In this document: positions 2,679 to 45,048 of the stretch, piece by piece
Numbering within the stretch: the first letter of the stretch is position 1
How the letters are laid out: every line of letters begins with the position of its first letter
Sequence record: PQ850625.1
Direction: 5' to 3' (one strand)
Source of the DNA: Escherichia phage SandraMuster_Bas78
DNA length: 46,496 nt
Notes under the pieces: model-generated
What the model saw: the letters and a program-made list of their open reading frames with translations, nothing else
The model's database searches: none
Told to the model about the DNA's origin: nothing
Position numbers and translations under genes: made by a program

Positions 2679-2754
2679 ATCCGCATAACCACACTTGACC
2701 AATCTACACCGAGCGCATAGTATAATCTACATCATGCTTACCGGAGATATCACT

Positions 2755-2961
2755 ATGCGCAGCTATGCAGGATTCACACAGGAGGAAAAAGAGCAGGTTT
2801 ATTCACTGGCTCGGGCTGGTGTGCCTGATGATGTGATTTGCCGTCGGTATGACATCGACGAGGATTTCCTGCTGCGCGTTTTGGATGACGTTTTCGTTAA
2901 CCTGCAGGAGAAGCGCGGGTACAAGGGTATCTGCTGCAAGAATGATTTTTTGAGAGGGTGA
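2755..2961 (+). CDS. hypothetical protein
   Basis: Internal ATG of track ORF 2695..2961; preceded by TATAAT-containing intergenic region. Confidence 0.35.
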   Translation: MRSYAGFTQEEKEQVYSLARAGVPDDVICRRYDIDEDFLLRVLDDVFVNLQEKRGYKGICCKNDFLRG

Positions 2962-2963
2962 TT

Positions 2964-3167
2964 ATGAGGGGTTTTGTAAGAGATTTCCTGTTTATTGGCA
3001 TTAAGTACACCATTGCACTGGTGATTGCTGTTCCGCTTATCTGGTTGATTAGATGGGAGGAGCCAAGTATTGATGACATTATAAACTGGCAGGTTTTCAG
3101 ACTTGTTATCGGCTTGTGGATTATTTCAGCTATTGCCGCATGGTGGATTAATCATGTTCAGAAATAA
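2964..3167 (+). CDS. small membrane protein (two predicted TM helices)
   Basis: ATG at 2964 preceded by GAGAGGGTG; two hydrophobic stretches in translation. Confidence 0.4.
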   Translation: MRGFVRDFLFIGIKYTIALVIAVPLIWLIRWEEPSIDDIINWQVFRLVIGLWIISAIAAWWINHVQK

Positions 3168-3561
3168 ATTAAAGAAAATAATCCGCGATGCTGCGGATAA
3201 GAAGTACACCAAAAAGATTGACATATCATTTATCGACGGCACTGGACTGTACAATCACGCATGCCACCTGAATGCAGTGAACCGTGCACGGGATGGTAGT
3301 TCGTGCGCAGTGGTTGAGGTGGTTATGATTAATGATGATGGCGCAACAGCGCATTACATCAATATGCAGTCAGACGGCGCATACATCGACTACACGCTTG
3401 GATGGCACTGGTCTGGTGCTGATTACCGGTTTGTGCGGTTTGTTCCGTTTACTGAGTGGCCCGATATCACAGGATCGTTAAGCAAACTGAAAGCTGAACT
3501 GTGTAAGCCAGTGGCTAAATGGCAGAGGTTATTGATGGTAACTGATGGTGAACTTTGTTGA
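3154..3561 (+). CDS. hypothetical protein
   Basis: ATG at 3154 within track ORF 3103..3561. Confidence 0.45.
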   Translation: MFRNKLKKIIRDAADKKYTKKIDISFIDGTGLYNHACHLNAVNRARDGSSCAVVEVVMINDDGATAHYINMQSDGAYIDYTLGWHWSGADYRFVRFVPFTEWPDITGSLSKLKAELCKPVAKWQRLLMVTDGELC

Positions 3562-3569
3562 GGTGAGTG

Positions 3570-3743
3570 ATGAAAATCGAAGGTGATTACGGGCAGCATA
3601 TTATGGTTGATAAGGATTTCAAGTATGGTAACGACCTATTAGTAGTTAGGCAAACTGGTGATGTAATCGTCGTTGCAATTGAGCAAGCAGAGCAGCTTAT
3701 CGAAGTCCTGCAACGCTGGGTTAATGGTGAGGAGATTGAGTGA
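3570..3743 (+). CDS. hypothetical small protein (57 aa)
   Basis: ATG preceded by GAGGTGAGTG; ORF just below the 60 aa track cutoff; stop overlaps next start (ATGA). Confidence 0.35.
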   Translation: MKIEGDYGQHIMVDKDFKYGNDLLVVRQTGDVIVVAIEQAEQLIEVLQRWVNGEEIE

Positions 3744-3928
3744 TGAGCGTTTATTTTATTCATGCTGAAGTGCTTAATGGTGGTGCTATTGTCGCAAAAA
3801 TATGTGCTGTTTCTACTGCATCTGACCCAGAAAGAGCATTTGATATGTTTTTTAATTGCGACAGGGTGAAAGGCCACGAAAGCAAAGGTCGTGATGTTGT
3901 AATTGATAAACTGGAAAAGGTGGAGTGA
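3740..3928 (+). CDS. hypothetical protein
   Basis: Track ORF; start overlaps previous stop, stop overlaps next start. Confidence 0.4.
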   Translation: MMSVYFIHAEVLNGGAIVAKICAVSTASDPERAFDMFFNCDRVKGHESKGRDVVIDKLEKVE

Positions 3929-4089
3929 TGGCACTATTCTGGTCGTTCTGGATTCCACTTAATTTTATGTTCTGGTGGGCTATGGCTGCCGGAGTGAATG
4001 AACCAAGCAGGATACATTTCATGGTTGGCTCATTTTTCGCTGTGGTAACTGGTATTGTGCCATGCTTGTTGTATCAATATTTCAAATAG
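3928..4089 (+). CDS. small hydrophobic membrane protein (53 aa)
   Basis: ATG at 3928 overlapping previous stop; translation MALFWSFWIPLNFMFWWAMAAG... strongly hydrophobic. Confidence 0.3.
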   Translation: MALFWSFWIPLNFMFWWAMAAGVNEPSRIHFMVGSFFAVVTGIVPCLLYQYFK

Positions 4090-4099
4090 AGGTGGAGTG

Positions 4100-4348
4100 A
4101 TGATAGGGATAATTCTTACTCTTATCGTTACGGCGTTCTTTGTTTATATCCTGATAAGACATCAGCTTGTTTATATTGCCAGAGGAAGATTCATAAACTA
4201 CTTCTATACAGAAGACCATAATGGATATGCAGCCGGCAAGATATTCCATGAGTCGCTACCAAGCTACGATGAGATGCTGTGGAAATTCTGGGTGTGGCCT
4301 CTGTCAAAATTCTATCCGGCGTACAGAAATCGAAATCGCAATAAGTGA
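4100..4348 (+). CDS. small membrane protein
   Basis: ATG at 4100 preceded by GAGGTGGAGTG; N-terminal TM helix IGIILTLIVTAFFVYILI. Confidence 0.4.
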   Translation: MIGIILTLIVTAFFVYILIRHQLVYIARGRFINYFYTEDHNGYAAGKIFHESLPSYDEMLWKFWVWPLSKFYPAYRNRNRNK

Positions 4349-4355
4349 CCATGCT

Positions 4356-4386
4356 ATAATCCCTCCATCGTGAGGGATTTTTTATT
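4356..4386 (+). terminator. hairpin plus T-run immediately upstream of portal gene
   Basis: ATCCCTCCATCGTGAGGGAT followed by TTTTTTATT. Confidence 0.4.
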
Positions 4387-4394
4387 GGTGACAT

Positions 4395-5807: not shown

Positions 5808-6741
5808 CGCAAGACTTCCGCAGCCGCGCATATCGCAGAGCCTGACCGACCCGTTAGGCGCTGCAACCCGCATGTCGAAGATGGACAAGGTGATAACGCG
5901 CAAATATAAGCAACTCAGGACTCGTGCGCTTGAGTTGTTTCGCACCATTCCGCATAGTCAGACTAACGCAGAATCAAGCGGTCTGTATTTCTATGATTTC
6001 AGTAGTGCGCGCGCCGCTACTTTCATGGATGAGTTGCAGGCGCTGATTGACGAGATTCTGCTGGAAGGTGACGACTTCAGTCACGGCAGGATGTGGGCCA
6101 ATGTGTTCATCGGTGATGCGTATCAGGCAGGAACGCAGAAGGCCAACTCTGAACTATCAAGCCTGTCTCCGGTTTATGCCGAGCAAAGGCCTATTGCCGC
6201 GATACTCTACAGTGAGCCATATCTGAATCGGCTGCGGCTTGCGTATACAGCTGGTTACTCGGACTGGCGAGGATTGAGTGATTACTCACGCCAACAACTG
6301 GCATCCGTCATTATGGAAGGCATTGCCCGTGGTGCCAATCCTCGAGATGTTGAGGCTGATATTGTTAAGCGTGTTGACGTGTCACATAGTTACGCGAAGC
6401 AGATAGCGCAGACTGAAATCACCGGAACGCTGCGGCAGGCTAACAGGAGAGAAGTCATTGAGGCTCGCGAGGAATTAGGTATTGAAACGGTGATGCTGTG
6501 GCAATCGGCATTATTGCCTGGTCGAACGAGATTTACTCACGCGGCACGGCACGGGCGGTTTTACGCGCCAGAGGAGATTGACACGTTCTATAGCGAGAAT
6601 GGCAATAGATATAATTGCCACTGTGCACAAGTACCAACATTGATAATGGATGGCAAGCCAGTCATTCTTGAGTCGTCGCAGGAAAGGCTTGATAAGCAGC
6701 GTGAAGCGTGGCAATCAGCCAATAAAAAGCCCTCTAAGTGA
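5782..6741 (+). CDS. head morphogenesis protein (MuF/SPP1 gp7-like minor head protein)
   Basis: ATG at 5782 inside track ORF 5578..6741, whose upstream part overlaps the portal in another frame; position right after portal; stop codon lies inside the terminator hairpin. Confidence 0.55.
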
Positions 6742-6756
6742 GGGCTTGGTTTTATC
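6726..6756 (+). terminator. rho-independent terminator
   Basis: AGCCCTCTAAGTGAGGGCT hairpin followed by TGGTTTTAT. Confidence 0.55.
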
Positions 6757-6824
6757 TTATCAGCATACACAGAACGAATATTATTATCGCATAGCACAAT
6801 ATCTCTACGACGCTGAATATTGTT

Positions 6825-7433: not shown

Positions 7434-7445
7434 TTTTGTTCTCCG

Positions 7446-8079: not shown

Positions 8080-8100
8080 AATTTCTTCCTCACTCATCGT

Positions 8101-8140
8101 TTGATGTAGATACTATGCACCACCACTCAATCTACGTCAA
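8101..8140. promoter_or_regulatory. inverted repeat TTGATGTAGAT ... ATCTACGTCAA in divergent intergenic region
   Basis: Two copies of the recurrent AATCTACRYCA motif in inverted orientation about 18 bp apart, between minus-strand island and lysis cassette. Confidence 0.45.
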
Positions 8141-8184
8141 TAGCCATTGTGATAGAATTAATCATTATTTGAACAGGAGGCAGA

Positions 8185-9153: not shown

Positions 9154-9625
9154 ATACTGGCGACCACTGGCAATTATTATAATTGTTGTCTCTGGCGCGT
9201 TGTGGGCGCGTAGCGAAATCATCAGCTACGGCGACCAACGATACGCAGAAGGCAAATCCCAAGCAATCGCCGAACAGAAGGCCGCAGACGAACAAGAGGA
9301 GCAACGACGCAATGCAGAACTGCAAAAGATTCAGGCTGACGCACAGCAAAGGATTGACGCTGCGCGCAATGATGCTGTCAATGCTGCTGCTAAGTCTGGC
9401 AGGTTGCAGCAACAGCTCGCAAATATCCGCAAGCAGCTCGTCGGATATTCCACCGCTGAGTCCATTGGCAATCCAGCCGCAGAAACCGGAGTTTTGCTCT
9501 CCGACGTGCTCAGCAAATCTGTCGAAAGAAATCGACAACTGGCAGATTACGCTGACAGGGCAAGAGAAGCAGGATTAGCGTGTGAGGCGCAGTATAATTC
9601 GCTGCGCAATAAAAAAGCCCCGTAA
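9134..9625 (+). CDS. i-spanin (Rz-like)
   Basis: N-terminal TM helix (LAIIIIVVSGALWA) then long charged coiled-coil region; last gene of lysis cassette; embedded lipoprotein ORF in +1 frame. Confidence 0.6.
   Translation: MMSILAKYWRPLAIIIIVVSGALWARSEIISYGDQRYAEGKSQAIAEQKAADEQEEQRRNAELQKIQADAQQRIDAARNDAVNAAAKSGRLQQQLANIRKQLVGYSTAESIGNPAAETGVLLSDVLSKSVERNRQLADYADRAREAGLACEAQYNSLRNKKAP
9369..9578 (+). CDS. o-spanin (Rz1-like lipoprotein) embedded within the Rz-like gene
   Basis: Alternate frame inside Rz ORF encodes MLSMLLLSLAGCS (signal plus lipobox LAGC) followed by Pro/Ser-rich region. Confidence 0.5.
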   Translation: MMLSMLLLSLAGCSNSSQISASSSSDIPPLSPLAIQPQKPEFCSPTCSANLSKEIDNWQITLTGQEKQD

Positions 9626-9638
9626 TGGGGCTTGTGTT
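9611..9638 (+). terminator. rho-independent terminator after lysis cassette
   Basis: AAAAAAGCCCCGTAATGGGGCTTGTGTTT. Confidence 0.6.
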
Positions 9639-9764
9639 TAATTGGCTTGCTCTGAGCTTTCTCTCTGCTTCCACATCTGCTTCAGCTGAAAATAAGCATA
9701 CGCCTCATCACCATCTTTCGCATTGCGCTCCATTTGCTCACACCATGCCGATGGTTTTGGCGGC

Positions 9765-10293: not shown

Positions 10294-10724
10294 TATTTAA
10301 TCTCCAGTTCTTTTGCGCGAATTGCGCTGTCAATGATGTCTTGCAAATCCTGTTCGCGCGATTTATGTCCGCGCTCGCCGGCTTGCAACGCCTTCTTGAT
10401 TAAGTGCTGCAATGCTGGGTTGGTGACATTCCACGCCATGAGTACATCGTACACGTCAATAAAAATACCAGGCTTAATCTCGTGCAGGTATTTGTTATCA
10501 GCCTCAGGAGCGCCAATGCAATCATTGAGGTCTTGTTCGTCGGTAATTGGCTCGCGGTATGCAATAACAACATCCCCGCGACCCTCAATCGCTTCAATGC
10601 GATCAGCATAATATTTGCTTAGATAGAAAATCTCACCAGTCCTTTCTGACTTAACTACAAGATAAGCCGCGTTATGGCCAGCAAAATCATCCTCACAACC
10701 TTTCAGATATTTCCACTTTTTCAT
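10293..10724 (-). CDS. hypothetical protein
   Basis: 143 aa track ORF, start overlaps upstream stop. Confidence 0.5.
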   Translation of the reverse strand: MKKWKYLKGCEDDFAGHNAAYLVVKSERTGEIFYLSKYYADRIEAIEGRGDVVIAYREPITDEQDLNDCIGAPEADNKYLHEIKPGIFIDVYDVLMAWNVTNPALQHLIKKALQAGERGHKSREQDLQDIIDSAIRAKELEIK

Positions 10725-10915
10725 TTCATCGTCACCCGATTATTTTCATCAACATTAAAATTCGCACGAATCAAATCATACATGTCATTTTTAGGCATAT
10801 CAGCCAGCGCCACATAGCAACGGGCAAAGTAGCGAACATCACGGAGTGTCAGCGGCTGCCGCTTCTCCACAATGCTGGTGATAATGTCCATCGGCTCGCG
10901 TCGTGGTCTTGGCAT
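10721..10915 (-). CDS. hypothetical protein
   Basis: First gene of minus-strand island, downstream of divergent regulatory region. Confidence 0.45.
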   Translation of the reverse strand: MPRPRREPMDIITSIVEKRQPLTLRDVRYFARCYVALADMPKNDMYDLIRANFNVDENNRVTMK

Positions 10916-10942: not shown

Positions 10943-10987
10943 TTGACGTTTCTACATCACTTAGTCAATACTTATTGACGTAGATTG
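10943..10987. promoter_or_regulatory. divergent control region with two copies of the TTGACGT-TCTAC motif
   Basis: TTGACGTTTCTACATCA and TTGACGTAGATTG between divergently transcribed gene blocks. Confidence 0.45.
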
Positions 10988-11706: not shown

Positions 11707-12205
11707 TCATGAGATTGTTTTGTCGTTAATTGATTACAATCCAGAGTCTGGGCAATTCACCAGAAAGAATGGGAAACAATGCGGCACAAAAACAACGAAG
11801 GGTTATATCCATGTGCGACTGCTTGGTAAAAAGCGCCTTGCGCACCGCCTGGCTTGGTTTTATGTTTACGGCGAATGGCCAGAACATGAGATTGATCATA
11901 TTAATGGAGTAAAAGATGACAACAGGATATGCAATCTAAGGAAGGCAACAAGACAACAAAATGAATGGAATAAGCCGCAACCAGGCACCAATACATCTGG
12001 CGTCAAGGGCGTGTGGTTTGCGTCAAACAGAGGGAAATGGCGTGCTGATTGCATGAGAAAAACACTTGGTTACTTTAACACGAAAAAAGATGCTATTAGC
12101 GCATTAATTAAATACAGGAGCGAAAACCAAGGCGAGTTCAAAAATCACGGACACCTGTACACTGCAGAAGACTTCAATCAGGCAGCCGAGGAGCGTGATT
12201 TATGA
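11693..12205 (+). CDS. HNH endonuclease with AP2-type DNA-binding domain
   Basis: HRLAWFYVYGEWPEHEIDHINGVKDDNRICNLR (HNH) followed by SGVKGVWF...KWRA...LGYF (AP2-like); paralogous to gene at 37197..37823. Confidence 0.7.
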   Translation, partial: KCDLNHEIVLSLIDYNPESGQFTRKNGKQCGTKTTKGYIHVRLLGKKRLAHRLAWFYVYGEWPEHEIDHINGVKDDNRICNLRKATRQQNEWNKPQPGTNTSGVKGVWFASNRGKWRADCMRKTLGYFNTKKDAISALIKYRSENQGEFKNHGHLYTAEDFNQAAEERDL

Positions 12206-17067: not shown

Positions 17068-17071
17068 ACTG

Positions 17072-17097
17072 AACCCGCATAATGCGGGTTTTTTATT
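17072..17097 (+). terminator. rho-independent terminator
   Basis: ACCCGCATAATGCGGGTTTTTTATT. Confidence 0.65.
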
Positions 17098-17124
17098 GGG
17101 GATTCCATGGATGCAAAATAAAAG

Positions 17125-17150
17125 AAAAGCCCCATGACGGGGCTTTTGAT
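17125..17150 (-). terminator. bidirectional hairpin terminator ending the minus-strand MTase/clamp operon
   Basis: AAAAGCCCCATGACGGGGCTTTT, A-run and T-run on both sides. Confidence 0.6.
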
Positions 17151-17862: not shown

Positions 17863-18662
17863 TAAACGGACCTCATGAATGCTTTAATGAATTCTGCTGC
17901 GACTTGTGGAACTATGGCATTGCCATAACCGCGCAATCGTCCCACTCTTGCGGATACCCCATGAGTTGCCTCGCAAAATCCGCCTGGTATGACTCTAGTT
18001 TCCTTATCTGCTCCATGGTTGGGTTTCCATGAATCCCATAAACATGAAGCCACATCTGGCGATAAAGAGTATCGTTCCTGAATTTTCCGTCCTTTCTGTA
18101 AAATGTCTTGCTGAGATCCCCGTAATCCTTCCATCCTCGCGCCGTTGGTGTCGCCCATCCTCGCGCCAAAGATGATTCTTTTCCTTTCCTGTGGAGAGCC
18201 GACGCTGCAAGCTGGCAATACTGACGCCCCGCAGGCGTAGCCTTTGTCTTCCAGGTTAAGGAATACAAAATCGAGCCAGTGCTTCCCAATTGCTGCTGCA
18301 ACCTGCTCTCCAAACAGCAATTCAGGCTTGCACTCTCTGATGAGCCTGAGAAATGCTGGGGCAAGGTGTCGATCGTCGTCAAATCCGAGAGACTTACCGG
18401 CAACGCTAAACGGCTGGCAAGGTGGTGATCCTGTCCAGAGTCGAGTGCTTTCTGGTATTCCTGCCAGCTGGAGTGCAATGGGCCACCCTCCGATTCCGGC
18501 AAAGAAGTGACACTGTGTAAATCCTTCCAGGTCTGAAGGGGTGACTTCGGTGATTGATCGTTCATCGACATATCCGTAAGGAATTAGTTTATTGTTAATT
18601 AATTCACGCAGCCATGCCGCTGCGCCCTTGTCCCACTCATTGTAATAGTGGACCATCATCAC
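17862..18662 (-). CDS. DNA (cytosine-5) methyltransferase
   Basis: C5-MTase motifs FAGIGG (motif I), PPCQPFS (motif IV, catalytic Cys), GEQV (ENV-like), GNAIVPQVA (motif X). Confidence 0.85.
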   Translation of the reverse strand: MMMVHYYNEWDKGAAAWLRELINNKLIPYGYVDERSITEVTPSDLEGFTQCHFFAGIGGWPIALQLAGIPESTRLWTGSPPCQPFSVAGKSLGFDDDRHLAPAFLRLIRECKPELLFGEQVAAAIGKHWLDFVFLNLEDKGYACGASVLPACSVGSPQERKRIIFGARMGDTNGARMEGLRGSQQDILQKGRKIQERYSLSPDVASCLWDSWKPNHGADKETRVIPGGFCEATHGVSARVGRLRGYGNAIVPQVAAEFIKAFMRSV

Positions 18663-19468
18663 ATCTTCTCCAGAATTGCCATCACCTCGTGAATATCAGC
18701 AACAGGAATCTGGATAAACTCCTCATTCTCTGCCACTACATGACCAGCAGGAAGAATAACGTGGTCAGCTGGCTTCAGTAACTCAATCAGTCGGTCTACT
18801 GGCTTAATCTTTTTCGACTTAAGCACCTTCGCCGTTACCTTATCCTTGCCTTGCGCCTTCGCTTCTTCGACTGCCTCGTCGATAACTTTAACCGCATCAT
18901 CGCCATGTTCGCGAGTTACTGCTACGGCATTTGCATAGCTGATTTGCCCTGCACTGATTCGCGCTTTTACTTCGGCTGGCACATCACCCAGTGACAGGTG
19001 CATCTGCACGTCAGAAACTGAGCGCCCTACCTTCTTGGCGATTTCCTCGTTGGTCCAGCCAAAACCCTTCAGTCGCGTGTAAGCCTTTGCGCGTTCAAAC
19101 GGGTCAAGCTGCTTACCCTGACTGGACGACACCATGAAGGCGATTTTATCTGCTTCGCCTCCTGTGAAATCCTTGCACTCAATACGAACAATTGGTGCGC
19201 CACGCTCAATGGCACGCAACGCTCCGAGATAGCGATGCTGACCATCAAGAATGCGGATTCCCTTCTCGTCTGGAATAACTGTTAATGCTGGCAATGGCTG
19301 ACCTGACTCCCAGCACTGCGCGAAATACTCCACATGCTGCTCATCTGCTTCGCGGATGTTGTATCCTGGTTCCAGATAGATTTGCTCAACTGGCACGAGA
19401 TATGTCTTGTTTACCGCGATTCCGTTGCGCGTTTCTTTGTCTGAATAGATTTTGCTGAGTGTTTTCAT
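18659..19468 (-). CDS. ParB-like nuclease-domain protein with HTH
   Basis: ILDGQHRYLGALRA matches the ParB N-terminal domain signature; central HTH-like segment WTNEEIAKKVGRSVSDVQMHL; ATGA overlap with MTase. Confidence 0.7.
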   Translation of the reverse strand: MKTLSKIYSDKETRNGIAVNKTYLVPVEQIYLEPGYNIREADEQHVEYFAQCWESGQPLPALTVIPDEKGIRILDGQHRYLGALRAIERGAPIVRIECKDFTGGEADKIAFMVSSSQGKQLDPFERAKAYTRLKGFGWTNEEIAKKVGRSVSDVQMHLSLGDVPAEVKARISAGQISYANAVAVTREHGDDAVKVIDEAVEEAKAQGKDKVTAKVLKSKKIKPVDRLIELLKPADHVILPAGHVVAENEEFIQIPVADIHEVMAILEKM

Positions 19469-19836: not shown

Positions 19837-19883
19837 TTTCTACGTCACTAACTATAAACGCCTCATCAATCTACGTCAACAGG
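19837..19883 (+). promoter_or_regulatory. regulatory region with two direct copies of the TCTACGTCA motif
   Basis: TTTCTACGTCA and AATCTACGTCAACAGG upstream of plus-strand operon starting 19927. Confidence 0.4.
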
Positions 19884-22380: not shown

Positions 22381-23025
22381 TTTAAGCATTGCCAGCATGC
22401 TTTCTTAATATCCAGCCCCGTAACCCATACATACCCCTACATATGATTGCGATAATGCTGGATATTAAGTGTTGTGGTGGCCGGTGCTGATATCCGGCAT
22501 AAGGCGCTTATTCGGCGGCGTCGAGCTTGCTTATTCGCTTGAGCCATCCTCGTGAGTCAGCCACGTCCCACTGCGCATCAGCCTGCGCATTCACCACAAC
22601 GGAAATAGCACTGGATAACCAAGCGCGCAGACTCTTCACGATTATCTGCTCAATGCTCTTACCTGTTGTGTGCCACGTTTCGTGTGGCTTACGGCAACGA
22701 CATTACCGGATTATTCGCTGCACCCTTGATGGATTTACTAAGGCGACATGCCCGTTGTTACCCACGAATGAGAGCACTATAAGTTACGCTGCCTCGGACG
22801 TACCTACGCTGCCTGTTCTTAAATACTCTCATTGGTGGGTGCCCGTTATTAATCACAGCGGGCCACTGCGCCGAATTTGTTTACAAGGAGTCGGAAGACC
22901 TTGCTGACTTACAGGCTATTACGCCGCCATCAGAACAACATCATCGTTTGCATTTATCTTTGTGGTCAGTTTCTAAAAAGTCCGCAAAGTCGCTCACGAA
23001 AACTATCTGAAATACAATCTACACC

Positions 23026-23060
23026 ACAAAATAATCACTGTCAACACCTGTGATATAATC
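23026..23060 (+). promoter_or_regulatory. extended -10 promoter upstream of major tail gene
   Basis: AATCTACACCA ... TGTCAACACC ... TGATATAAT (TGnTATAAT); near-identical element at 24535..24586. Confidence 0.5.
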
Positions 23061-23815: not shown

Positions 23816-23846
23816 ATAAAAAAGCCCCGGAAGGGGCTTTGTTTTA
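23816..23846. terminator. bidirectional terminator between convergent genes
   Basis: AAAAAAGCCCCGGAAGGGGCTTTGTTTTA. Confidence 0.6.
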
Positions 23847-24534: not shown

Positions 24535-24586
24535 GAATCTACATCACCACCTAACAGGTGTCAACACCACTGAGATGATATAATCA
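24535..24586 (+). promoter_or_regulatory. extended -10 promoter upstream of chaperone / tape measure operon
   Basis: AATCTACATCACC ... TGTCAACACC ... TGATATAAT, same architecture as 23026..23060. Confidence 0.5.
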
Positions 24587-32524: not shown

Positions 32525-32563
32525 TACAATATACATCAAATTCACAAAGGAGCATTTATTATA

Positions 32564-34473: not shown

Positions 34474-34500
34474 CTAAGGCCCCGAAAGGGGCCTTTTATC
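34474..34500. terminator. bidirectional terminator between tail fiber and SSB genes
   Basis: AAGGCCCCGAAAGGGGCCTTTTATCTTT. Confidence 0.6.
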
Positions 34501-35001: not shown

Positions 35002-36057
35002 TTAAAATCCTTCAATTGGAGTTGGTTTGTGTTCTGTTTTTTCTTCCTGCGGTTCTGGCTGCTGTGGTTGCGGTTTAGCCAGTTTTGCAGGATTGAAATT
35101 ATCCTGCGGAGTTATTACCACAGGAGATAATTGCTCATCATTGATAAAAGACTCAATGCGATCATATTCAGCGGCAGAAGCAGCCAGAGAAGGCCAGATT
35201 GCGCGAATTTTATCTTTCAGGTTATCAGGTATTGATTTTGCTTCTTCCTTCAGGCCTTCCATGCCTTTTGCTGCAGAAAGCTGAAGTCTTGAGCGCCATG
35301 ACTCAAACTCTTCGTCAACTTTAACTCCAGAGTCCACCCATTTGATGAGTCCGCGACCATGCGCCTCGCCAATGTATCCATGACGAACACTTTCACGACC
35401 AGACTCAAAGAAGATTGGGCGTAGTTCTTCTGGTAATTTGGTGAACTCCTGGATTTTTCCTCCATCGTGCATCATCATGCTCACGGTCATCTCGAACATG
35501 AAATCTTTCTCGCACACTGGCTGCAAACCAAGAGACACAGGTTCCTTCGGGTTTGCGAAATCAGTTTTCTGACGGGCGCGAAGGCATACAATGATATGCA
35601 TATTGCTTTGCAGCATGGCGTTCATGAACTTCTTGTGTTCAGCTTTGGCGCGCTTCCAGTCAGCCATCTTTTTACCGTTAAGCAGCGGCTTTTCAGCAAT
35701 CTCCGTGCAACTGCCTTCACCTTCCCATTCATGCGAACCTGAATCAATAACAAGAACCTTAACGCCGGCAGCCTGAAACTCTTCAATGGCCTGACGGTAA
35801 CGGGCCGGGCTGAATGGAGCATACATATCAGCGTGCAGGAATTTGCCATCAAGGATGTTTGAGTACAGGCGACCGCGACCGTTTTCAGTATCAAGGAATC
35901 CGATTTCTTCTGGTGAATCAACCATCCCGCGAGCCAGCTTAAGTGCGCTATATGTTTTGCCGCTACCTGACTGGCCTGAAATGCCGATGACCACGCGAGA
36001 ACCTGAACGCTCTGCTGGTTTAATATTGAGAATACCCATTTGCATTACCTCACTCAA
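35002..36057 (-). CDS. RecA-fold ATPase, Sak4-like (AAA_24) recombination protein
   Basis: Walker A GISGQSGSGKT near N-terminus; adjacent to SSB and exonuclease; long Pro/Glu/Gln-rich C-terminal extension. Confidence 0.55.
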   Translation of the reverse strand: MSEVMQMGILNIKPAERSGSRVVIGISGQSGSGKTYSALKLARGMVDSPEEIGFLDTENGRGRLYSNILDGKFLHADMYAPFSPARYRQAIEEFQAAGVKVLVIDSGSHEWEGEGSCTEIAEKPLLNGKKMADWKRAKAEHKKFMNAMLQSNMHIIVCLRARQKTDFANPKEPVSLGLQPVCEKDFMFEMTVSMMMHDGGKIQEFTKLPEELRPIFFESGRESVRHGYIGEAHGRGLIKWVDSGVKVDEEFESWRSRLQLSAAKGMEGLKEEAKSIPDNLKDKIRAIWPSLAASAAEYDRIESFINDEQLSPVVITPQDNFNPAKLAKPQPQQPEPQEEKTEHKPTPIEGF

Positions 36058-36255: not shown

Positions 36256-37200
36256 TTATAAATTAAACTGTTTTTTGAACCATTCAGGCGTTTCCATTTC
36301 TATGACAGGATTACCCATTGAATAACCGGGCCACGAATTGGCTTTTTTGCACGCCTTGTAAATTTCCATAGCGCCATGCAACTGAATTCGACCGATGCGT
36401 AATTGCTCTTCAGTCAAGCGAATTAACGCAGGAATAAATGGTGCTTTCTTTTCCTGAACGAGAAGATTAACAGAGCGTGGCGCATGACCATATGCCGCAA
36501 CAAACATGTCGTGCTGCATCGCCATTTTCATAAAGTACCCAAGTCTCGCAGCATGACGGAAAAACTCTTCTGGCTTGGCGCTCACCGCTGTTTTGTAGTC
36601 GATGATGTCGCCACCTTTGGTAAGGCAGTCAAAGCGAACTTTTGCCTTCTCTCCGTTAAGTTCACCTAGAATTGACACTTCAGCATAAGCACCAGCGAGA
36701 AGACTGCTGTAATAGCTGTTTGCGTGGATTACAGCACGCATTTGCTGAATAGCGTCATAATCACCACCTTCCAGCATTTGCTTTCCTACAGCAGCTTTTT
36801 CAGCCTCTTCACGGATGACATCGTAAATTTTCACTGGCTCGCCAGTCGCCTGGATGATTTTGATCACCTCAGCTTTCGACTTTCCTGAAAGTCCTTTGAT
36901 GCCTCGTTCTTTTGCCCATGAGTTCATATCACTTACAGTAACAAGCAGGTCATCACCAAAATCTTCTTTGGTTGGCATTCGTGCATATTCAGCATCAAAA
37001 CGCTCTGGTTCAAGCAACGCAGTATGGCTACCTGTACCGAATATAAGAGCTTTTGATTGCTCATCCTCTTCGTCTTTGTATCGCCATGCTGCTGGGCATC
37101 TGTCAAGTATATTCCATAATCCAGAACCATTAATGTGCTCTGTGTCAGCATGATAATCCTGATTGCTTAATTCATTGTTGAAATAAACTCTCATCATCAC
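36256..37200 (-). CDS. PD-(D/E)XK family exonuclease (RecB/Cas4/YqaJ-like)
   Basis: C-terminal GGDIIDYKT (D...D/ExK core) and recombination-module context. Confidence 0.55.
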   Translation of the reverse strand: MMMRVYFNNELSNQDYHADTEHINGSGLWNILDRCPAAWRYKDEEDEQSKALIFGTGSHTALLEPERFDAEYARMPTKEDFGDDLLVTVSDMNSWAKERGIKGLSGKSKAEVIKIIQATGEPVKIYDVIREEAEKAAVGKQMLEGGDYDAIQQMRAVIHANSYYSSLLAGAYAEVSILGELNGEKAKVRFDCLTKGGDIIDYKTAVSAKPEEFFRHAARLGYFMKMAMQHDMFVAAYGHAPRSVNLLVQEKKAPFIPALIRLTEEQLRIGRIQLHGAMEIYKACKKANSWPGYSMGNPVIEMETPEWFKKQFNL

Positions 37201-37823
37201 TCTCCGTGGTTACAGAATTCTTTATGCATCTTTTCTCTGAATTTCATCACAGACAACCTCGCTCTCTCAATATCATTGAATAACCCAAGATGGTATCTTT
37301 TCCCGTTAACATCACAGTAAGCCTGCCACTTTTTAACCTGTTTTTGCCAATATACACCTTTAACTCCTGATGTGTTATTTTTTGGTTTTTTAGCGTTATA
37401 CTGGTTCTGCATATTTGTTGCGATTCTTAAGTTGCAAATCCTGTTATCGTCACGCACGCAGTTAATGTGATCAATTTGACCTTCAGGCCAGAAACCATAA
37501 TAAATCAACCATGCCAAGCGATGCGCGTAGTATCTTTTATTATTTATGCTTATCTCTATGTATCCGTTATGTTTTTTCCTGCCAGCGACACTACCCTTTC
37601 TTATACCTCCACCCGTCTTATTTCTAATGAAAACCCCCGTTTCAGGGTTGTAATTTAAGCTATCCAAAACAACATCACGTGGTATTCTTTTTCTTCCTCC
37701 TATGGTGTTTGACTCTGCACTTCCCTGAGCAAAATCTTGCTTTTGCAGTTCCGATAAACTCATTTCCACAAACCTCGCACTTCTTAACGGTGATAGCCAT
37801 TTCTTATCCTCTATTGTAATCAT
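37197..37823 (-). CDS. HNH endonuclease with AP2 domain
   Basis: HRLAWLIYYGFWPEGQIDHINCVRDDNRICNLR and SGVKGVYW...KWQA; paralog of 11693..12205; 5' end lies in 131 bp repeat shared with gene at 40224..40997. Confidence 0.7.
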   Translation of the reverse strand: MITIEDKKWLSPLRSARFVEMSLSELQKQDFAQGSAESNTIGGRKRIPRDVVLDSLNYNPETGVFIRNKTGGGIRKGSVAGRKKHNGYIEISINNKRYYAHRLAWLIYYGFWPEGQIDHINCVRDDNRICNLRIATNMQNQYNAKKPKNNTSGVKGVYWQKQVKKWQAYCDVNGKRYHLGLFNDIERARLSVMKFREKMHKEFCNHGE

Positions 37824-37868: not shown

Positions 37869-38309
37869 TTAATCTACGTCATCCAGCAAGCCAAAATAGA
37901 AAAGTGTGGCTTTTTTTAGTTCATCAAGACCGTAAGCGATGGCTGCATAATGACCAAGCCTGCACATCTCTGTTAGAACTGCTGATTGATCCTTGCTCAC
38001 TCTGCTCTTACTTTTGTCACGGCGCTTTGCCTCAATCATTCCGCAGCAGTGGTTCGCACCCGGAGTCATTATTACGTTATCGCCTATTCCAGGCTTAACC
38101 CCCATCTTCTGGCGCTTCAGTACGAACTGGACGCGGCTGGATGTTCCTGTTTCATTCGGGACGTGAAACCATAGCACATCAGGGAAACAGTGTTGCATCC
38201 ATGTTCCATAACCCATCTGGTCAGTCTCCTCTTTTGGGCATTCGCCGCGATAACCGCTATCAAATACCCATATACCGCTATCAAGCTGCTTCACTTTGTT
38301 CTCCTGCAA
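37869..38309 (-). CDS. VRR-NUC-like nuclease
   Basis: GDNVIMTPG...GMIEAKRRDKSKSRVSKDQ consistent with a D...E.K...Q VRR-NUC core; immediately downstream of helicase, a common pairing. Confidence 0.5.
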   Translation of the reverse strand: MQENKVKQLDSGIWVFDSGYRGECPKEETDQMGYGTWMQHCFPDVLWFHVPNETGTSSRVQFVLKRQKMGVKPGIGDNVIMTPGANHCCGMIEAKRRDKSKSRVSKDQSAVLTEMCRLGHYAAIAYGLDELKKATLFYFGLLDDVD

Positions 38310-40215: not shown

Positions 40216-40223
40216 TTCATCAC

Positions 40224-40997
40224 CTATGGCATGTCAGGCCAATAAGAGTTGCTTTTAGATCTGTTTTCACTTGGTGCAAGTAATTGTAAGTTATGCCAGC
40301 AGTGAAGGCCGCAAACCAATTTACTATTTATTGGCACTATGTGATCAACTTGCATACCAAGAACGCCAGCCATCTCATAAACCTTTTCAATTAAAACCCT
40401 TTCATGTTCAAACCATGATGGTATCGCCCGTCTTTTAAGATACTTATATTTACGCTGATGATATCTAACAACACCATTGTTTTTCTGTCTCCACTGTTTT
40501 GACTTCTCGTTGTGCTTTTCCTTGTTTTCATTGTAATACTTCTTTGATTTTGCGTTTATCTTGTTCTTATTTGCTGCGTAATTACCTTTCTTGAACTCTG
40601 ATTGGCACTTCTTACATTCAGGCCTAAGACCATCAAGTGATGATTTGTTTTTATTGAAGTTTTCTTCATTTGCATCAAGAACTGAGTTGCATTTAGAGCA
40701 TACTTTCCTTCCATCAACAAGATATCTCAGCCTTTTACCTTTGTTTCCATCGCATGATTTACAATGAGATTTTAAACCAAGCCTCATCTTCTTATCTGAG
40801 TAGAAGTAATCACTTGTTGCAGGAAGCATTAAATTGCATCTTGAGCATTTCTTTTTTGTCCCTGTGCTTGCGCAACCTGCACTTTCCTGAGCAACATTTT
40901 GCTTTTGCAGTTCCGATAAACTCATTTCCGCAAACCTCGCACTTCTTAACGGTGATAGCCATTTCTTGTCCTCTATTGTAACGATTAATTGTTTCAT
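40224..40997 (-). CDS. HNH endonuclease with N-terminal zinc-ribbon repeats
   Basis: C-terminal QVDHIVPI...CGLHCWHNLQLLAPSEN (HNH) and multiple CxxC pairs upstream; N-terminus shares repeat with 37197..37823. Confidence 0.65.
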   Translation of the reverse strand: MKQLIVTIEDKKWLSPLRSARFAEMSLSELQKQNVAQESAGCASTGTKKKCSRCNLMLPATSDYFYSDKKMRLGLKSHCKSCDGNKGKRLRYLVDGRKVCSKCNSVLDANEENFNKNKSSLDGLRPECKKCQSEFKKGNYAANKNKINAKSKKYYNENKEKHNEKSKQWRQKNNGVVRYHQRKYKYLKRRAIPSWFEHERVLIEKVYEMAGVLGMQVDHIVPINSKLVCGLHCWHNLQLLAPSENRSKSNSYWPDMP

Positions 40998-41069
40998 TGC
41001 AAGTAACGATTGATTGTTTCATGTGAGTAAATTACAATGATTCTACATCATCGTCAACAGGAAGATTTT

Positions 41070-42023: not shown

Positions 42024-42025
42024 AA

Positions 42026-42052
42026 GAAACCCTCCGACTGGAGGGTTTTTGT
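42026..42052. terminator. bidirectional terminator
   Basis: AAACCCTCCGACTGGAGGGTTTTTGTT. Confidence 0.6.
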
Positions 42053-42357
42053 TATGCTTTGATGTTAACTTTTATTGCGAACACTTCCACCGGGTCAGGA
42101 CCGAAATGTGGGTGGGTGATGGTCTTAACCGTCCATCCATCGTATGGGATATCAATACGCCTGGATTTATCGTCCTTCTTTGGATATCCTTTTGTGATAA
42201 TTAACCTTTCGTACTTCCTTCCAATCTGTCCGCTATCTTTAAAGTTAATAAGGCGCTTCTTCCAGTAGTCATTAAAAAGGCGATACTCTTCCGTTTTATC
42301 TCCGCGAATCATGGCATCGAAGTATTCACCTTTGACGGCAAGTTGCAGGTTAGCCAT
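42052..42357 (-). CDS. possible ASCH/PUA-like domain protein
   Basis: Internal ATG (MANLQLAVKGEYFDAMIRGDKTEEYRL) of track ORF 42052..42390; pattern resembles ASCH domain N-terminus; low confidence. Confidence 0.35.
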   Translation of the reverse strand: MANLQLAVKGEYFDAMIRGDKTEEYRLFNDYWKKRLINFKDSGQIGRKYERLIITKGYPKKDDKSRRIDIPYDGWTVKTITHPHFGPDPVEVFAIKVNIKA

Positions 42358-42613
42358 TATTTCCCTCCAGAATCCAAACTGAATTACCAATACGACTGTT
42401 ATTTAAATCCTTTGACACGCGGCCATCCTTACAAAGAGAAATCAGAACCTTCCGTAACTTCGCTGCTGTCCATTCATCATCAGGAAATTCATTCACCATT
42501 GATAGACGCAAACTCCACGTAGCCACTGAGAACTTACGAAAAATTCCAAGTTTCTCCTCCTCAATGGATTTTCTCTTTCTCATCACATATAAAACCTTAT
42601 CCTTCACATCCAT
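42350..42613 (-). CDS. hypothetical protein
   Basis: Track ORF. Confidence 0.4.
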   Translation of the reverse strand: MDVKDKVLYVMRKRKSIEEEKLGIFRKFSVATWSLRLSMVNEFPDDEWTAAKLRKVLISLCKDGRVSKDLNNSRIGNSVWILEGNNG

Positions 42614-42623
42614 TTCCTTACCC

Positions 42624-42815
42624 TCACTTAATCATCATCTTTGAAATATCAACGTGACCAACACAAAATCTGTGCCAGTAATCATCAAGCATGTGGTAAT
42701 TAGAGCGAATCCATACTTTGTTAATCCGGCTCCAGAAAAACCACGTCGAATAACCATGCGGCCTGAAATGCCATAAACCTTCTGAGCGACAAATTTCGCC
42801 TGATATTGTTCTCAT
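42624..42815 (-). CDS. hypothetical protein
   Basis: Track ORF, start overlaps upstream stop. Confidence 0.35.
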   Translation of the reverse strand: MRTISGEICRSEGLWHFRPHGYSTWFFWSRINKVWIRSNYHMLDDYWHRFCVGHVDISKMMIK

Positions 42816-44368
42816 TTCAACCTCGGATTTATGTGAACAGTATTCCCGATAAATACGCAGTAACCATCCTCTTCCAGAGATGGCAATACACTTGACCTGA
42901 GTCGGTCATAAATTTTAGGTATCCCTTTGAATGGTCGTACGTTTTTAAGTGAATCATAAAGCCACTTCACCGTTACGTTTGTTTTTCCTTTCTGAGCGGC
43001 AGAGCGTAGCTTTTCGGCAACAACATCAAATTCAGAACGCTCACCAGCATATCCATTTGATTCCACGGCGTCGGTGAATGTTTTTGTTAGTGCGTCATAA
43101 ACACTGATGGCGCGACTAATTTCATTTTCACCGATAATCTTTGATTGCTTTCCTCCATCACACCAGTTTTCAGCAGCGTGAAATATTGCTGCCAGACGGA
43201 TTATTTGCTTATCAGCTTTACCCATCGCGCCACGAAGAAGGACGTGATCCCACTTACCGCCGGGAAGGAAGTTTTTCTCCCACTGATTTCGTAACAGGCC
43301 AATCATTCTTGCTGAGTCATTGTGAAGCGTCAGTTTTGTTTTTTCTGCTGACACAACATTATGTATAAATCTTGCATATTCCGACCTCAAGCTATCTGGC
43401 ATTGGCTTGCTTACAGGGCAATCATTAACCATGTCCCAGTGTTCGCGATAGCCAAGCATTGATTGCTCTCGCAACATCAGGAAACGTTCAGAAAGACCGT
43501 TCCCCCTGTCGCCAGCGGCAAGAATGGCATCAATACTTTCATCCTGCGCAATCACACTTATGTTTCCAAGCACGTAACCAGATGAAACGCCACGACCAAC
43601 ACGAGCAGAACCAATGAATCCGCCATCCCAGCCCTTCAGGATGACTTCGGCGTTTGCCTTTCCACCTTCTTTTCCGTAAGAGAGGCCAAGACATGTGTTA
43701 AGGACGCTTGCCTCGTCACTTATCAGATTAAAAAAACCACCTTCATGAATGGCCTGATGCTGGACAGCCTCCGGAGTTGCGTCCGTCAGTGGATATGTGA
43801 TCGTATAAAGCTCCTCCAGCTTCTCCTTTTCGCGAGCAATATCATCGCCGATTAGTGCCTTTGCATTCTGATTACTGGCCTCTTTGTATGCCTTCATCAA
43901 CTCTTCAATGCGAAGATTTATTTTTATGATCTGCTTTTCCATCTTTTTGGAAAGGTTGTCATATTCAATCTTCACCGGATTCATGTGCATTGAGTTGATG
44001 GCAGTTTTCCCTGCTGATGGAGGCTGAGAAGTAACCACGTAAAGAGAAACTGGAAGCTCTGAATGGTAATACTCAACGCTAAAGTTTCTCGTCATTGCGC
44101 TGGCAACGCACCCAAGTAAATGCATGAACGATGTATTTATTGGGAACTGAACAGCACGAGCTGCAGCGATTGCATAACGAGACAGCAAATCTGTTCTGTG
44201 CTCACTGGTCAGTTCTGTTTCTGAGTACGTTACATCACGCTCCTTACCTTCCTTGATATCCAGCCACATATTTGAGCTTGGTGTCATGCCATGATGGAAG
44301 GCGACGCGAGCAGGAGATACTTTCAATTCCCTTGCTTCGTTGAAGATATCTTGAGCTGTGATCATCAT
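42812..44368 (-). CDS. P-loop NTPase replication protein (possible replicative helicase / primase-associated)
   Basis: Walker A-like TSQPPSAGKT in a 518 aa protein next to primase candidate and origin-like region. Confidence 0.5.
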   Translation of the reverse strand: MMITAQDIFNEARELKVSPARVAFHHGMTPSSNMWLDIKEGKERDVTYSETELTSEHRTDLLSRYAIAAARAVQFPINTSFMHLLGCVASAMTRNFSVEYYHSELPVSLYVVTSQPPSAGKTAINSMHMNPVKIEYDNLSKKMEKQIIKINLRIEELMKAYKEASNQNAKALIGDDIAREKEKLEELYTITYPLTDATPEAVQHQAIHEGGFFNLISDEASVLNTCLGLSYGKEGGKANAEVILKGWDGGFIGSARVGRGVSSGYVLGNISVIAQDESIDAILAAGDRGNGLSERFLMLREQSMLGYREHWDMVNDCPVSKPMPDSLRSEYARFIHNVVSAEKTKLTLHNDSARMIGLLRNQWEKNFLPGGKWDHVLLRGAMGKADKQIIRLAAIFHAAENWCDGGKQSKIIGENEISRAISVYDALTKTFTDAVESNGYAGERSEFDVVAEKLRSAAQKGKTNVTVKWLYDSLKNVRPFKGIPKIYDRLRSSVLPSLEEDGYCVFIGNTVHINPRLK

Positions 44369-44604
44369 GAAATCCTTTTTACGTAAACCATATCTTTGTC
44401 AGGGTATCCAACCTTTGTTGAGAATTTCATGCCTTCATTCCTGCGCATGAAATAGTTTAATGCGTTCCTCAGGCTTGCAATACCTCCAAACCTCTTCGAG
44501 TCAATCATCACAGTCTCCCCTACTGAAACCGCCGACAACCCAGAAAGAGCTGCATTCTTTTTGCCATACTTATCAAGTTTCACAAAATCCTCCAACAGCA
44601 ACAA
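44365..44604 (-). CDS. hypothetical protein, first gene of replication operon
   Basis: Track ORF; stop overlaps start of P-loop protein gene. Confidence 0.45.
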   Translation of the reverse strand: MLLLEDFVKLDKYGKKNAALSGLSAVSVGETVMIDSKRFGGIASLRNALNYFMRRNEGMKFSTKVGYPDKDMVYVKRIS

Positions 44605-45048
44605 ATTATGATTGAATCATATCATAAGTATTGAATCATGCAACATCAAATACGACTCACGTGGGTAACGTGGGGCAGCCGTGGGGAACATCACCTTCCC
44701 CACGAACTTTTACTCTAAGTATATGTAATATAATATAATTATTATTATTTGGGTTAATGGGTAATATTATTATTCATATTATAGATAGTAATTAACATAA
44801 TATTAACAAATGGATTATTTGAATATATTTATAAGGGGATGGGTATGAAATCTGCCCCTTTTTACCCACGAAAAATAAAAACATTCAAATCAATAATTTA
44901 CGATGAAAAACGTGGGGCAACCAACCTTCCCCACGACCTGCCCCACGAGCAAAAATTTACCCCACGGGCACGTTTTTAACGCATCCCTGTTGACGTAGAA
45001 TCATCGTTGATGTAGATTGAACTCATCGAAACAAACGAGGGTGAAGAG
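44605..45048. repeat. origin-like non-coding region: CGTGGGG/CCCCACG iterons flanking an AT-rich core
   Basis: About nine copies of the CGTGGG(G) core in both orientations around an approx. 130 bp strongly AT-rich stretch (44710..44845); ATTGAATCAT direct repeat; two TTGAYGTAGA motif copies at 3' edge. Confidence 0.5.

Follow-up and report, generated by a model that had tools for sequence, protein, structure and literature searches.

What does a short motif that recurs at the operon boundaries of a phage genome mark: a class of promoters, or the binding sites of a regulator? The question is raised by the window analysed here (46,496 nucleotides), which is the complete genome of a lytic E. coli siphovirus, a BASEL 'Skatevirus' phage with 97% identity to Bas77. 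A preliminary description listed the 11 bp motif AATCTACRYCA, hereafter the box, at 14 sites, and took it for a promoter class or the operator set of one DNA-binding regulator.

All 14 sites were found, although the copy placed at 23027 truly starts at 23016, 11 bp away. The proposed consensus is exact in eight of them, the departures in the other six being confined to positions 1-2 or 11 (TTTCTAC.., TATCTAC.., ATTCTAC.. and ..ACCG). Counting against shuffled sequence, a check which the preliminary description had itself proposed, places the box far above chance in both forms. The exact form occurs eight times in the whole window where 0.08 are expected, and none of 100 shuffles reached eight; the relaxed form WWTCTACRYCR occurs at 15 sites, whereas 200 second-order Markov simulations gave 0.43 on average and never more than three. 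The copies had been described as almost all non-coding, and indeed 12 of the 15 relaxed-form sites lie wholly in non-coding DNA, which makes up 6.2% of the genome (binomial p about 1e-12). Among the exceptions, the box at 37871 reaches into the final codons of a gene, that at 23016 lies within a doubtful small ORF, and a site at 28495, inside a tail gene, is probably a chance copy. Information is limited to the 11 bp; the flanks are flat, hence no fixed partner element stands beside the box. The box is asymmetric, with no second half-site hidden in the flanks, and its reverse complement, TTGACGTAGATT, can supply -35 or -10 hexamers by itself. The sites, together with one degenerate copy, are as follows.

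2701-2711, + strand: AATCTACACCG, in the spacer directly 3' of the -35 TTGACC of the promoter at 2695-2723; kept in Vi II-E1.
2724-2734, + strand: AATCTACATCA, fused to the -10 (TATAAT running into CTACATCA) and covering +1; the gene at 2755-2961 starts 20 bp downstream.
8102-8112, - strand: TATCTACATCA, at -10/+1 of the leftward promoter of the 8097-6825 operon; K1M has the same design.
8129-8139, + strand: AATCTACGTCA, whose reverse complement forms the -35 TTGACG of that leftward promoter (8140 to 8112); the lysis operon's extended -10, TGATAGAAT, follows 13 bp downstream.
10949-10959, + strand: TTTCTACATCA, in the spacer 3' of the -35 TTGACG of the rightward promoter at 10943-10972.
10976-10986, - strand: AATCTACGTCA, at +1 of the rightward promoter and fused to the leftward TGGTACAAT.
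19837-19847, + strand: TTTCTACGTCA, at +1 of the promoter from which the ParB-like operon is read leftward.
19868-19878, + strand: AATCTACGTCA, whose reverse complement forms the -35 of TTGACG-17-TATAGT (19879 to 19851); the extended -10 TGCTAAAAT follows 12 bp downstream, and both promoters are conserved in Klebsiella phage 6991.
23016-23026, + strand: AATCTACACCA, whose reverse complement forms the -10 TAGATT of a leftward TTGACA-17-TAGATT; also 27 bp upstream of TGATATAAT, major tail gene.
24536-24546, + strand: AATCTACATCA, whose reverse complement forms the -10 of a leftward TTGACA-17-TAGATT (24564 to 24536); also 31 bp upstream of TGATATAAT, tail operon.
37871-37881, + strand: AATCTACGTCA, within the leftward replication/recombination operon and opposing its transcription, upstream of HNH and exonuclease genes; retained in Bas80 and Bas81, both of which are without the HNH gene.
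41040-41050, + strand: ATTCTACATCA, at the +1 position of the TTGATT-17-TACAAT promoter of primase; read in reverse complement it gives TAGAAT, facing the leftward gene 40224-40997.
44991-45001, - strand: ATTCTACGTCA, read on the + strand as the -35 TTGACG of the promoter at 44990-45018.
45008-45018, - strand: AATCTACATCA, read on the + strand as the -10 TAGATT of the same promoter.
32528-32538, + strand: degenerate copy AATATACATCA, directly 3' of the conserved extended -10 TGATACAAT of a tail-fibre gene.

The earlier placement of the motif at strand switches and operon starts can be sharpened. Boxes stand at all six divergent junctions and in four internal promoter regions, whereas none of the six convergent junctions, which hold bidirectional terminators, has one. 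In a promoter scan, each box overlapped a predicted sigma-70-like -35/-10 core, and eight box-associated matches with hexamers 16-18 bp apart scored 9-10/12 (2695, 8140, 10943, 19879, 23044, 24564, 41010 and 44990); as such scans overall gave no more sites than shuffled sequence, the individual promoter calls are weak. Where the box sits within the promoter varies between -35, spacer, -10 and +1, and both orientations are used. Paired copies are 17, 23, 27 or 31 bp apart in the window and 20-30 bp apart in relatives, with inverted pairs of both kinds, pointing apart at 8102/8129 and towards each other at 10949/10976. A fixed distance to TATAAT-like hexamers had also been proposed; it describes the 8129 and 19868 boxes (13 and 12 bp) but not those at 23016 and 24536 (27 and 31 bp), whose distance to the -10 shifts in relatives. 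The late operons have eight extended -10 promoters, four of which (625, 4352, 13834 and 32522) carry no box, hence the box is not an obligatory activator site.

Vi II-E1, Klebsiella phage 6991, pIS4-A and Citrobacter phage K1M carry the box at the same junctions. When the window is compared with the distant relatives 6991 and pIS4-A, identity is 85% in box columns and 62% in other non-coding columns (Fisher p 3e-7). At 19868 and 44991, GTAGAWT is kept beside the -35 TTGACG while the remaining spacer is randomised, so that the half of the box which the promoter can dispense with is still conserved. This is not the pattern of a plain sigma-70 constraint, which would cover hexamers and TG only, as the full 11 bp are conserved whichever half serves as the hexamer. 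The box also persists where relatives have rebuilt the layout around it, at the primase junction (Bas77, seszw), at the lysis junction (seszw) and in contig L138.

Judged from the sequence, these patterns speak for a set of operators rather than for a fixed class of promoter, because position, orientation and pair spacing all vary. The link to promoters proposed in the preliminary description stands, while a promoter class defined by the box is unsupported, given this variable placement, the flat flanks and the four extended -10 promoters without a box. We consider it about an even call that the boxes are recognition sites of one sequence-specific DNA-binding protein, lying over promoter cores and excluding host RNA polymerase. 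The protein would most likely be phage-encoded and may act as a monomer or flexible dimer on copies placed, singly or in pairs, over the -35, spacer, -10 or +1 of sigma-70-type -35/-10 promoters. An occupied box would exclude host RNA polymerase. Expression of the early and middle operons, with their small host-takeover genes, the ParB operon, the genes of recombination and replication, and primase, would thereby limit itself or cease, while the late structural and lysis operons, with extended -10 and no -35, would keep firing. That binding would repress rather than activate is something we infer solely from the position of the boxes. Part of the box conservation is nevertheless attributable to plain promoter function, as the box-derived TTGACG and TAGATT can be replaced by ordinary hexamers in relatives.

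Three genes encode candidate regulators, whose promoters bear two boxes each, as expected under autoregulation.

10721-10915, - strand: 64-aa basic protein, a candidate binder with a predicted winged helix and an N-terminal PRPRR arm.
18659-19468, - strand: ParB/KorB-like helix-turn-helix protein, a candidate binder in the operon of the double-box promoter at 19879.
2755-2961, + strand: small acidic three-helix protein resembling sigma-70 region 4, a candidate.

The gene for the 64-aa protein is the first beside the 10949/10976 double box. It and the ParB/KorB-like protein are conserved across the whole phage group. Structural neighbours include the MotA N-terminal domain for the predicted winged helix, a weak resemblance, and ArdK and KorA for the 68-aa product of 2755-2961, all Foldseek matches of the candidates being weak (E about 0.4 or above). 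This 68-aa product is more likely to be an RNA polymerase partner than a DNA binder. The ParB-like protein matches Pfam HTH_ParB (2.5e-11) and KorB (4.5e-6), and in the PDB Spo0J (6e-13) and KorB (3e-3); its helix-turn-helix is identical in the window and 6991, the GERR motif of ParB reads GQHR, and a viable seszw mutant has a truncated copy of the gene. Among the proteins scanned there was no Pfam match to a repressor family, within the sensitivity of Pfam. A doubtful extension is that the box halves double as -35 and -10 while the whole box is the site of the small winged-helix protein, which with the sigma-region-4-like protein would form a compact early-to-late switch; box-covered, -35-dependent promoters would close, and box-free or box-adjacent extended -10 promoters would stay open.

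A possible, though in our view improbable, alternative is that the box is itself a promoter element, TGAYGTAGATT supplying the -35 (TTGACG) or -10 (TAGATT) for host sigma-70, possibly with a phage factor that prefers the box version, the copies having arisen from duplicated promoter cassettes. The three best intergenic consensus matches, each 10/12, do use the box as a hexamer (TTGACG-17-TATAGT at 19879, TTGACA-17-TAGATT at 24564 and 23044), further 10/12 matches inside genes numbering three in one scan and one in another; TTGACG-17-TAGATT at 44990 is likewise built from the box. In pIS4-A the -10 copy matching 45008 is replaced by an ordinary TATAGT with the 17 bp spacing unchanged, at 10976 drift affects the TGACG half but spares TAGATT, and GCATAGTAT, common to the promoters at 2701/2724 and 8102/8129, suggests duplication. 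However, the box occupies four promoter positions, including the spacer and +1 where sigma-70 reads nothing, and conservation extends to the half that does not serve as a hexamer. At the 8100 and 10950 junctions the box points in opposite directions with respect to the neighbouring genes, and of the copies read as a -10, most have no -35 16-18 bp away. A T4 MotA-type activator site, at which a phage protein at about -30 replaces the -35 and recruits host polymerase to -10-only middle or late promoters, is unlikely. The boxes at 8129, 19868 and 44991(-) do end 11-13 bp upstream of TAnnnT, usually preceded by TG, a MotA-box geometry conserved in 6991 and pIS4-A, and the MotA-like neighbour of the winged helix would suit such a role. 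Yet this geometry is found in just three of about 15 boxes, the others lying 6-9 bp or 27-31 bp upstream or else downstream of the -10, and relatives depart by 4 bp or more from the distances seen at 23016 and 24536; the unboxed late promoters again argue against it, and no MotA or AsiA homologue was found by Pfam in about 50 proteins scanned.

A host transcription factor common to E. coli, Salmonella, Klebsiella and Citrobacter, through which the phage would sense host state, could account for a box unchanged over phages of several enterobacterial hosts whose proteins fall to 50-80% identity. We regard this as quite unlikely, since no E. coli factor that recognises such a sequence is known to us and the candidate phage proteins are equally conserved, as in the ParB-like helix-turn-helix. 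Very unlikely, finally, is that the boxes serve for loading the ParB-like protein in the manner of parS, or for replication or packaging, rather than as transcription signals. The phage does encode a ParB/Spo0J-family protein with a KorB-type helix-turn-helix, and two boxes flank an origin-like repeat region at 44620-44990, but the sites are asymmetric and non-palindromic and each coincides with a promoter core. The altered GERR motif and the viable truncation also count against it, as do ParB-like homologues of lambdoid phages and Jilinvirus which come without boxes; none was found near the homologues in OS31, Mulock, AH07 and EhrS_59. ep3 has a single copy, which is not retained in its relative Arya.

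Skatevirus, Macdonaldcampvirus, Roufvirus and their relatives are common in sewage, are used in typing and have been suggested as therapeutic agents against Salmonella, E. coli and Klebsiella; seszw, one of them, is a chassis for genome reduction. A conserved box at promoter junctions offers a direct handle on the hitherto undescribed gene regulation of this group; it predicts transcription units, narrows the candidate regulators to a small set and shows genome engineers which short intergenic stretches not to remove or duplicate.

We found no published description of the box in the literature. In Kagunavirus genomes, conserved intergenic 'phage promoter' repeats were reported by PHIRE, with a palindromic motif (AATAGTAC..TATT) assigned to a phage polymerase not encoded there (PMC7203180, PMC9825357). 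These too are recurrent intergenic motifs found by repeat counting in small enterobacterial siphoviruses, but the phages are unrelated (Guernseyvirinae) and the motif sequence is different. In T4 middle promoters, an asymmetric MotA box of 9-11 bp replaces the -35 and lies 12 +/- 1 bp upstream of a sigma-70 -10, with AsiA involved. Three boxes here share this geometry and a sigma-region-4-like small protein is encoded, but most boxes lie elsewhere and the late promoters are extended -10 with or without a box; the proposed switch would resemble that of AsiA/MotA in outcome but would be of independent origin. The RK2 (KorA/KorB) and R388 (ArdK and others) regulons likewise repeat operators at many, often divergent, operons under one small autoregulated regulator, and the phage encodes a ParB/KorB-like helix-turn-helix protein; the KorB operator, however, is a palindrome of 13 bp, unlike the asymmetric box, and seszw can do without the ParB-like gene.

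The stoperators of mycobacteriophage L5 gp71 are 13 bp and asymmetric, with about 30 copies in short intergenic regions genome-wide, set in one orientation relative to transcription, mostly off promoters, and block elongation. Although the boxes are also short, asymmetric, intergenic and spread over the genome, they occur in both orientations with each copy on a promoter core. L5-type stoperators were rejected on orientation, as the 37871 box runs against the direction of its operon and both kinds of inverted pair are present. The operators of P1 C1 are 17 bp, asymmetric and dispersed genome-wide in many copies at the promoters of separate operons, single or paired in either relative orientation and overlapping promoter elements; P1 is temperate and C1 maintains lysogeny. 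The boxes share with them asymmetry, dispersal over many promoters and single or paired occurrence. They differ in sequence and length from the 17 bp P1 operator ATTGCTCTAATAAATTT, no C1-like protein was recognised here, and the phage group is described as lytic. The dispersed asymmetric operator, already known from P1, L5 and broad-host-range plasmids, would be extended to a lytic group, a known principle being widened rather than overturned.

The preliminary description of this complete, 46.5 kb phage genome had listed 14 sites of an 11-bp box, AATCTACRYCA, and counting against chance puts the box far above expectation. The exact box occurs eight times in the window against 0.08 expected and, with one mismatch allowed, 15 times against 3.2. 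The relaxed form WWTCTACRYCR, which covers the listed sites, gives 15 copies against 0.43 (maximum 3) in second-order Markov simulations. All 14 sites are present, one of them with a corrected position, as the copy placed at 23027 starts at 23016. Their non-coding placement also holds, with 12 of the 15 boxes wholly within the 6.2% of the genome that is non-coding (p ~1e-12); a copy at 28495, within a tail gene, is probably there by chance. Tallied by position, 68 distinct sites drawn from five genomes hold information only in the 11 bp of the box, with flat flanks.

ORFs, the Bas77 annotation and a terminator scan divide the genome into twelve alternating transcription units. The boxes had been described as marking strand switches, and all six divergent junctions indeed carry one or two of them, with further copies in internal promoter regions. 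None occurs at any of the six convergent junctions (~6730, 9620, 17071-17147, 23830, 34480 and 42030), every one of which has a strong bidirectional intrinsic terminator.

Boxes (start positions) and intrinsic terminators in the window
8102 and 8129, divergent junction
10949 and 10976, divergent junction
19837 and 19868, divergent junction
24536, divergent junction
41040, divergent junction
44991 and 45008, divergent junction
2701 and 2724, internal promoter region after the terminase gene
23016, internal promoter region before the major tail gene
37871, internal promoter region inside the leftward replication operon
32528, degenerate copy before the tail-fibre gene
6727-6747, bidirectional terminator
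9615-9633, bidirectional terminator
17071-17147, bidirectional terminator
23821-23840, bidirectional terminator
34476-34495, bidirectional terminator
42025-42050, bidirectional terminator
586-604, unidirectional terminator splitting the long rightward unit
4358-4379, unidirectional terminator splitting the same unit

A cluster of CCCCACG/CGTGGGG repeats (44620-44990), including the hairpin CGTGGGGAACATCACCTTCCCCACG at 44680-44704, separates boxes 44991/45008 from the start of the leftward helicase operon. The matching sequence in Salmonella phage Vi II-E1 is annotated as repeats, and the cluster resembles an origin of replication or a field of iterons.

Escherichia phage ClaudiaMuster_Bas77 is 97% identical to the window and the BASEL phages Bas79 and Bas80 are also close, the cluster holding Bas77-81 being named Skatevirus in the BASEL paper. 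At rising distance follow Vi II-E1 (Macdonaldcampvirus) and seszw, then Citrobacter phage K1M, then Klebsiella phage 6991 and Aeromonas phage pIS4-A (Roufvirus, capsid identity ~79% to the window). The box is found at the same junctions in Bas77, Bas79, Bas80, Bas81, Vi II-E1, seszw, K1M, 6991 and pIS4-A, each genome having some 11-18 matches according to how strictly the pattern is set. Across five junctions compared between the window and 6991 or pIS4-A, identity was 85% in box columns against 62% in other non-coding columns (Fisher p 3e-7, a value weakened by 6991 and pIS4-A not being mutually independent). The box is real and conserved. Jersey and K1G (Kagunavirus), taken from the first BLAST lists, were rejected as relatives, sharing neither gene order nor the box set; each has three loose matches, with no clustering at junctions seen, and the Kagunavirus motif from PHIRE (PMC7203180, PMC9825357) is unrelated to the box. 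HNH homing-endonuclease genes (HNH_3, one with AP2) at 11717-12205, 37197-37823 and 40224-40997 vary in presence among close relatives. The gene at 11717-12205 occupies the place of a tandem winged-helix regulator gene in Bas77, 6991 and K1M, and the other two have the leader GTTACTTGCAATG in common.

Layouts differ among the relatives. At the primase junction, the single box of the window is matched in Bas77 and seszw by two boxes 25 bp apart, and in a divergent metagenomic relative (contig L138) the 10950-type junction holds a direct pair with a spacing of 20 bp. The seszw lysis junction (35220-35260) has inverted boxes 10 bp apart rather than 27 (TTGATGTAGATACTATACGTCAAC) in all seszw records; the idea that the 8129-type box had been experimentally deleted in a reduced seszw mutant was dropped, the arrangement being the natural seszw sequence, and as natural variation it shows that pair geometry is not fixed. 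The region 22960-23053 is nearly identical to 6991 and pIS4-A despite divergence of the surrounding genes. It adjoins a perfect leftward TTGACA-17-TAGATT promoter (23044 to 23016), for which the window has no leftward gene, and in Bas80, Bas81 and pIS4-A the region holds minus-strand tRNA genes; Rfam and tRNA scans of the window gave no Rfam match and no tRNA.

The reverse complement of the box, TGAYGTAGATT, together with the preceding T reads TTGACGTAGATT, in which a -35-like hexamer directly adjoins a -10-like one. In a consensus scan, boxes were involved in every intergenic sigma-70-like match facing an operon start.

Predicted -35/-10 promoters associated with boxes (the scan overall yields no more matches than shuffled sequence)
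19879, minus strand, TTGACG-17-TATAGT, -35 from one box and a second box at +1
24564, minus strand, TTGACA-17-TAGATT, -10 from box
23044, minus strand, TTGACA-17-TAGATT, -10 from box
44990, plus strand, TTGACG-17-TAGATT, both hexamers from two boxes 17 bp apart
41010, plus strand, TTGATT-17-TACAAT, box at +1
2695, plus strand, TTGACC-17-TAGTAT, spacer filled by one box, second fused to -10
10943, plus strand, TTGACG-18-AATACT, two-box design as in 2695
8140, minus strand, TTGACG-17-CATAGT, -35 from box, box 8102 at -10/+1

Comparison with relatives shows some of these predicted hexamers in use as such. The match at 19879 is retained in 6991 despite spacer divergence, and pIS4-A has an ordinary TATAGT in place of the -10 copy 45008, with spacing unchanged. 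GTCAAC(A) was discarded as a second motif, being the -35 (TTGACA) of leftward promoters with the box as -10.

Every late operon is preceded by a nine-base extended -10 site (TGnTAnnnT) without a -35, and early-type operons have -35/-10 promoters where the late ones (packaging, head, lysis, tail) have the extended -10.

Extended -10 sites of the late operons
625, small and large terminase
4352, portal
8150, lysis
13834, capsid
19888, head-tail
23051, major tail
24576, tail
32522, fibre

Half of these eight sites have a box 12-31 bp upstream, in each case beside a leftward -35/-10 promoter, and the others (625, 4352, 13834 and 32522) have no box upstream; the box thus goes with the -35/-10 class, not with the late one. 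This argues against an obligatory MotA-like activator site, although the box may have a secondary activating role, since three copies (8129, 19868 and 44991) show the geometry of a MotA box. An AsiA-like anti-sigma switch would exploit just such a two-class promoter design.

A plain promoter element would supply hexamers, as the box does at some sites, but we consider it unlikely that the box is only this. The half that the promoter does not need is still conserved, and boxes also sit in the spacer and at +1, positions unread by sigma-70. Direction and place vary too: inverted pairs are oppositely arranged relative to their flanking operons (<- -> at 8100, -> <- at 10950), box 37871 runs against its operon while 2701/2724, 23016 and 32528 run along theirs, and paired boxes are spaced 17 to 31 bp apart. 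Place and direction would be fixed in a promoter element, whereas such variability fits a protein site overlapping the polymerase footprint. From this anatomy, which is observed directly, we infer both protein binding and the sign of its effect, and we hold with evenly balanced confidence that the boxes are operators of one sequence-specific protein over early and middle -35/-10 promoter cores, limiting those operons. One protein would cover these cores, its binding would limit or shut off the box-covered operons, and the extended -10 late promoters would keep firing meanwhile. Many promoters, including those of the candidate regulator genes themselves, have two box copies. The operator and promoter-element readings are not exclusive, because of the hexamers supplied at some sites.

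The first candidate binder, on circumstantial grounds, is a 64-aa basic protein (10721-10915, minus strand) with a predicted winged helix (pLDDT 86), an invariant N-terminal PRPRR arm and forkhead, MarR, Rok and H1 domains as structural neighbours, since a monomeric winged helix would suit an asymmetric 11-bp site. All genomes of the group conserve it, minimal seszw included, and its gene is the first beside the most conserved double-box junction, likewise in L138. Directly after boxes 2701/2724, a conserved 68-aa acidic protein (2755-2961, plus strand) is encoded in all relatives and retained in the minimal seszw genome; its predicted fold is a three-helix HTH (pLDDT 80) whose structural neighbours all bind DNA through an HTH, and the K1M orthologue carries the annotation 'sigma-70 region 4'. 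Because the putative recognition helix is acidic, the protein is a poor candidate for DNA binding; action on RNA polymerase seems likelier, perhaps as a mimic of sigma region 4.

The only Pfam-recognised DNA-binding protein conserved group-wide is a ParB/Spo0J-family protein with a KorB-type helix-turn-helix (18659-19468, minus strand), in which the GERR motif reads GQHR. A co-occurrence test found no boxes by its homologues in lambdoid phages and Jilinvirus, and the case for it from ep3, where an exact box lies in the parB-like operon promoter, was rejected as the related phage Arya does not keep this box. The gene appears dispensable in the laboratory because it is disrupted in the seszw mutants MZ375335 and MZ375305, matching over half its length in one (viable, genome-reduced) and carrying an internal deletion in the other. 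Bas77, 6991 and K1M also carry a tandem winged-helix 'MarR/ArsR-like' gene, which was excluded because the window and minimal seszw lack it yet keep the boxes.

A double-box scan of IMG/VR yielded chiefly contigs of this same phage group and tandem repeats inside genes. On one contig not related to the window, L126, three to four copies of AATCTACGTCA and further ACGTCAA repeats occupy a 230-bp stretch (600-830) just upstream of a small-terminase-like gene; they may mark a packaging site, or the word may serve an unrelated purpose there. In the searchable literature we found no description of the box, for which the box sequence retrieved only primers, and no transcriptome paper for the phage group; an earlier mention in the original Vi II-E1 paper is possible.

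In working principle, the closest analogues include the dispersed, asymmetric sites bound by the C1 repressor of phage P1 and the global plasmid operator sets of RK2 (KorA/KorB) and R388 (ArdK), with L5 stoperators and T4 MotA boxes more distant. The box belongs to none of these systems, differing in sequence and length, and when tested it neither keeps to one orientation as L5 stoperators do, nor is palindromic like KorB operators, nor has a fixed geometry as MotA boxes have; no homologous regulator of the compared systems was recognised except the ParB-like protein. Dispersed operator sets are a known kind of arrangement in phages and plasmids, what is new here would be their occurrence in a phage group with unstudied regulation, and the finding would gain interest if the box were the pivot of an AsiA-like early-to-late switch.
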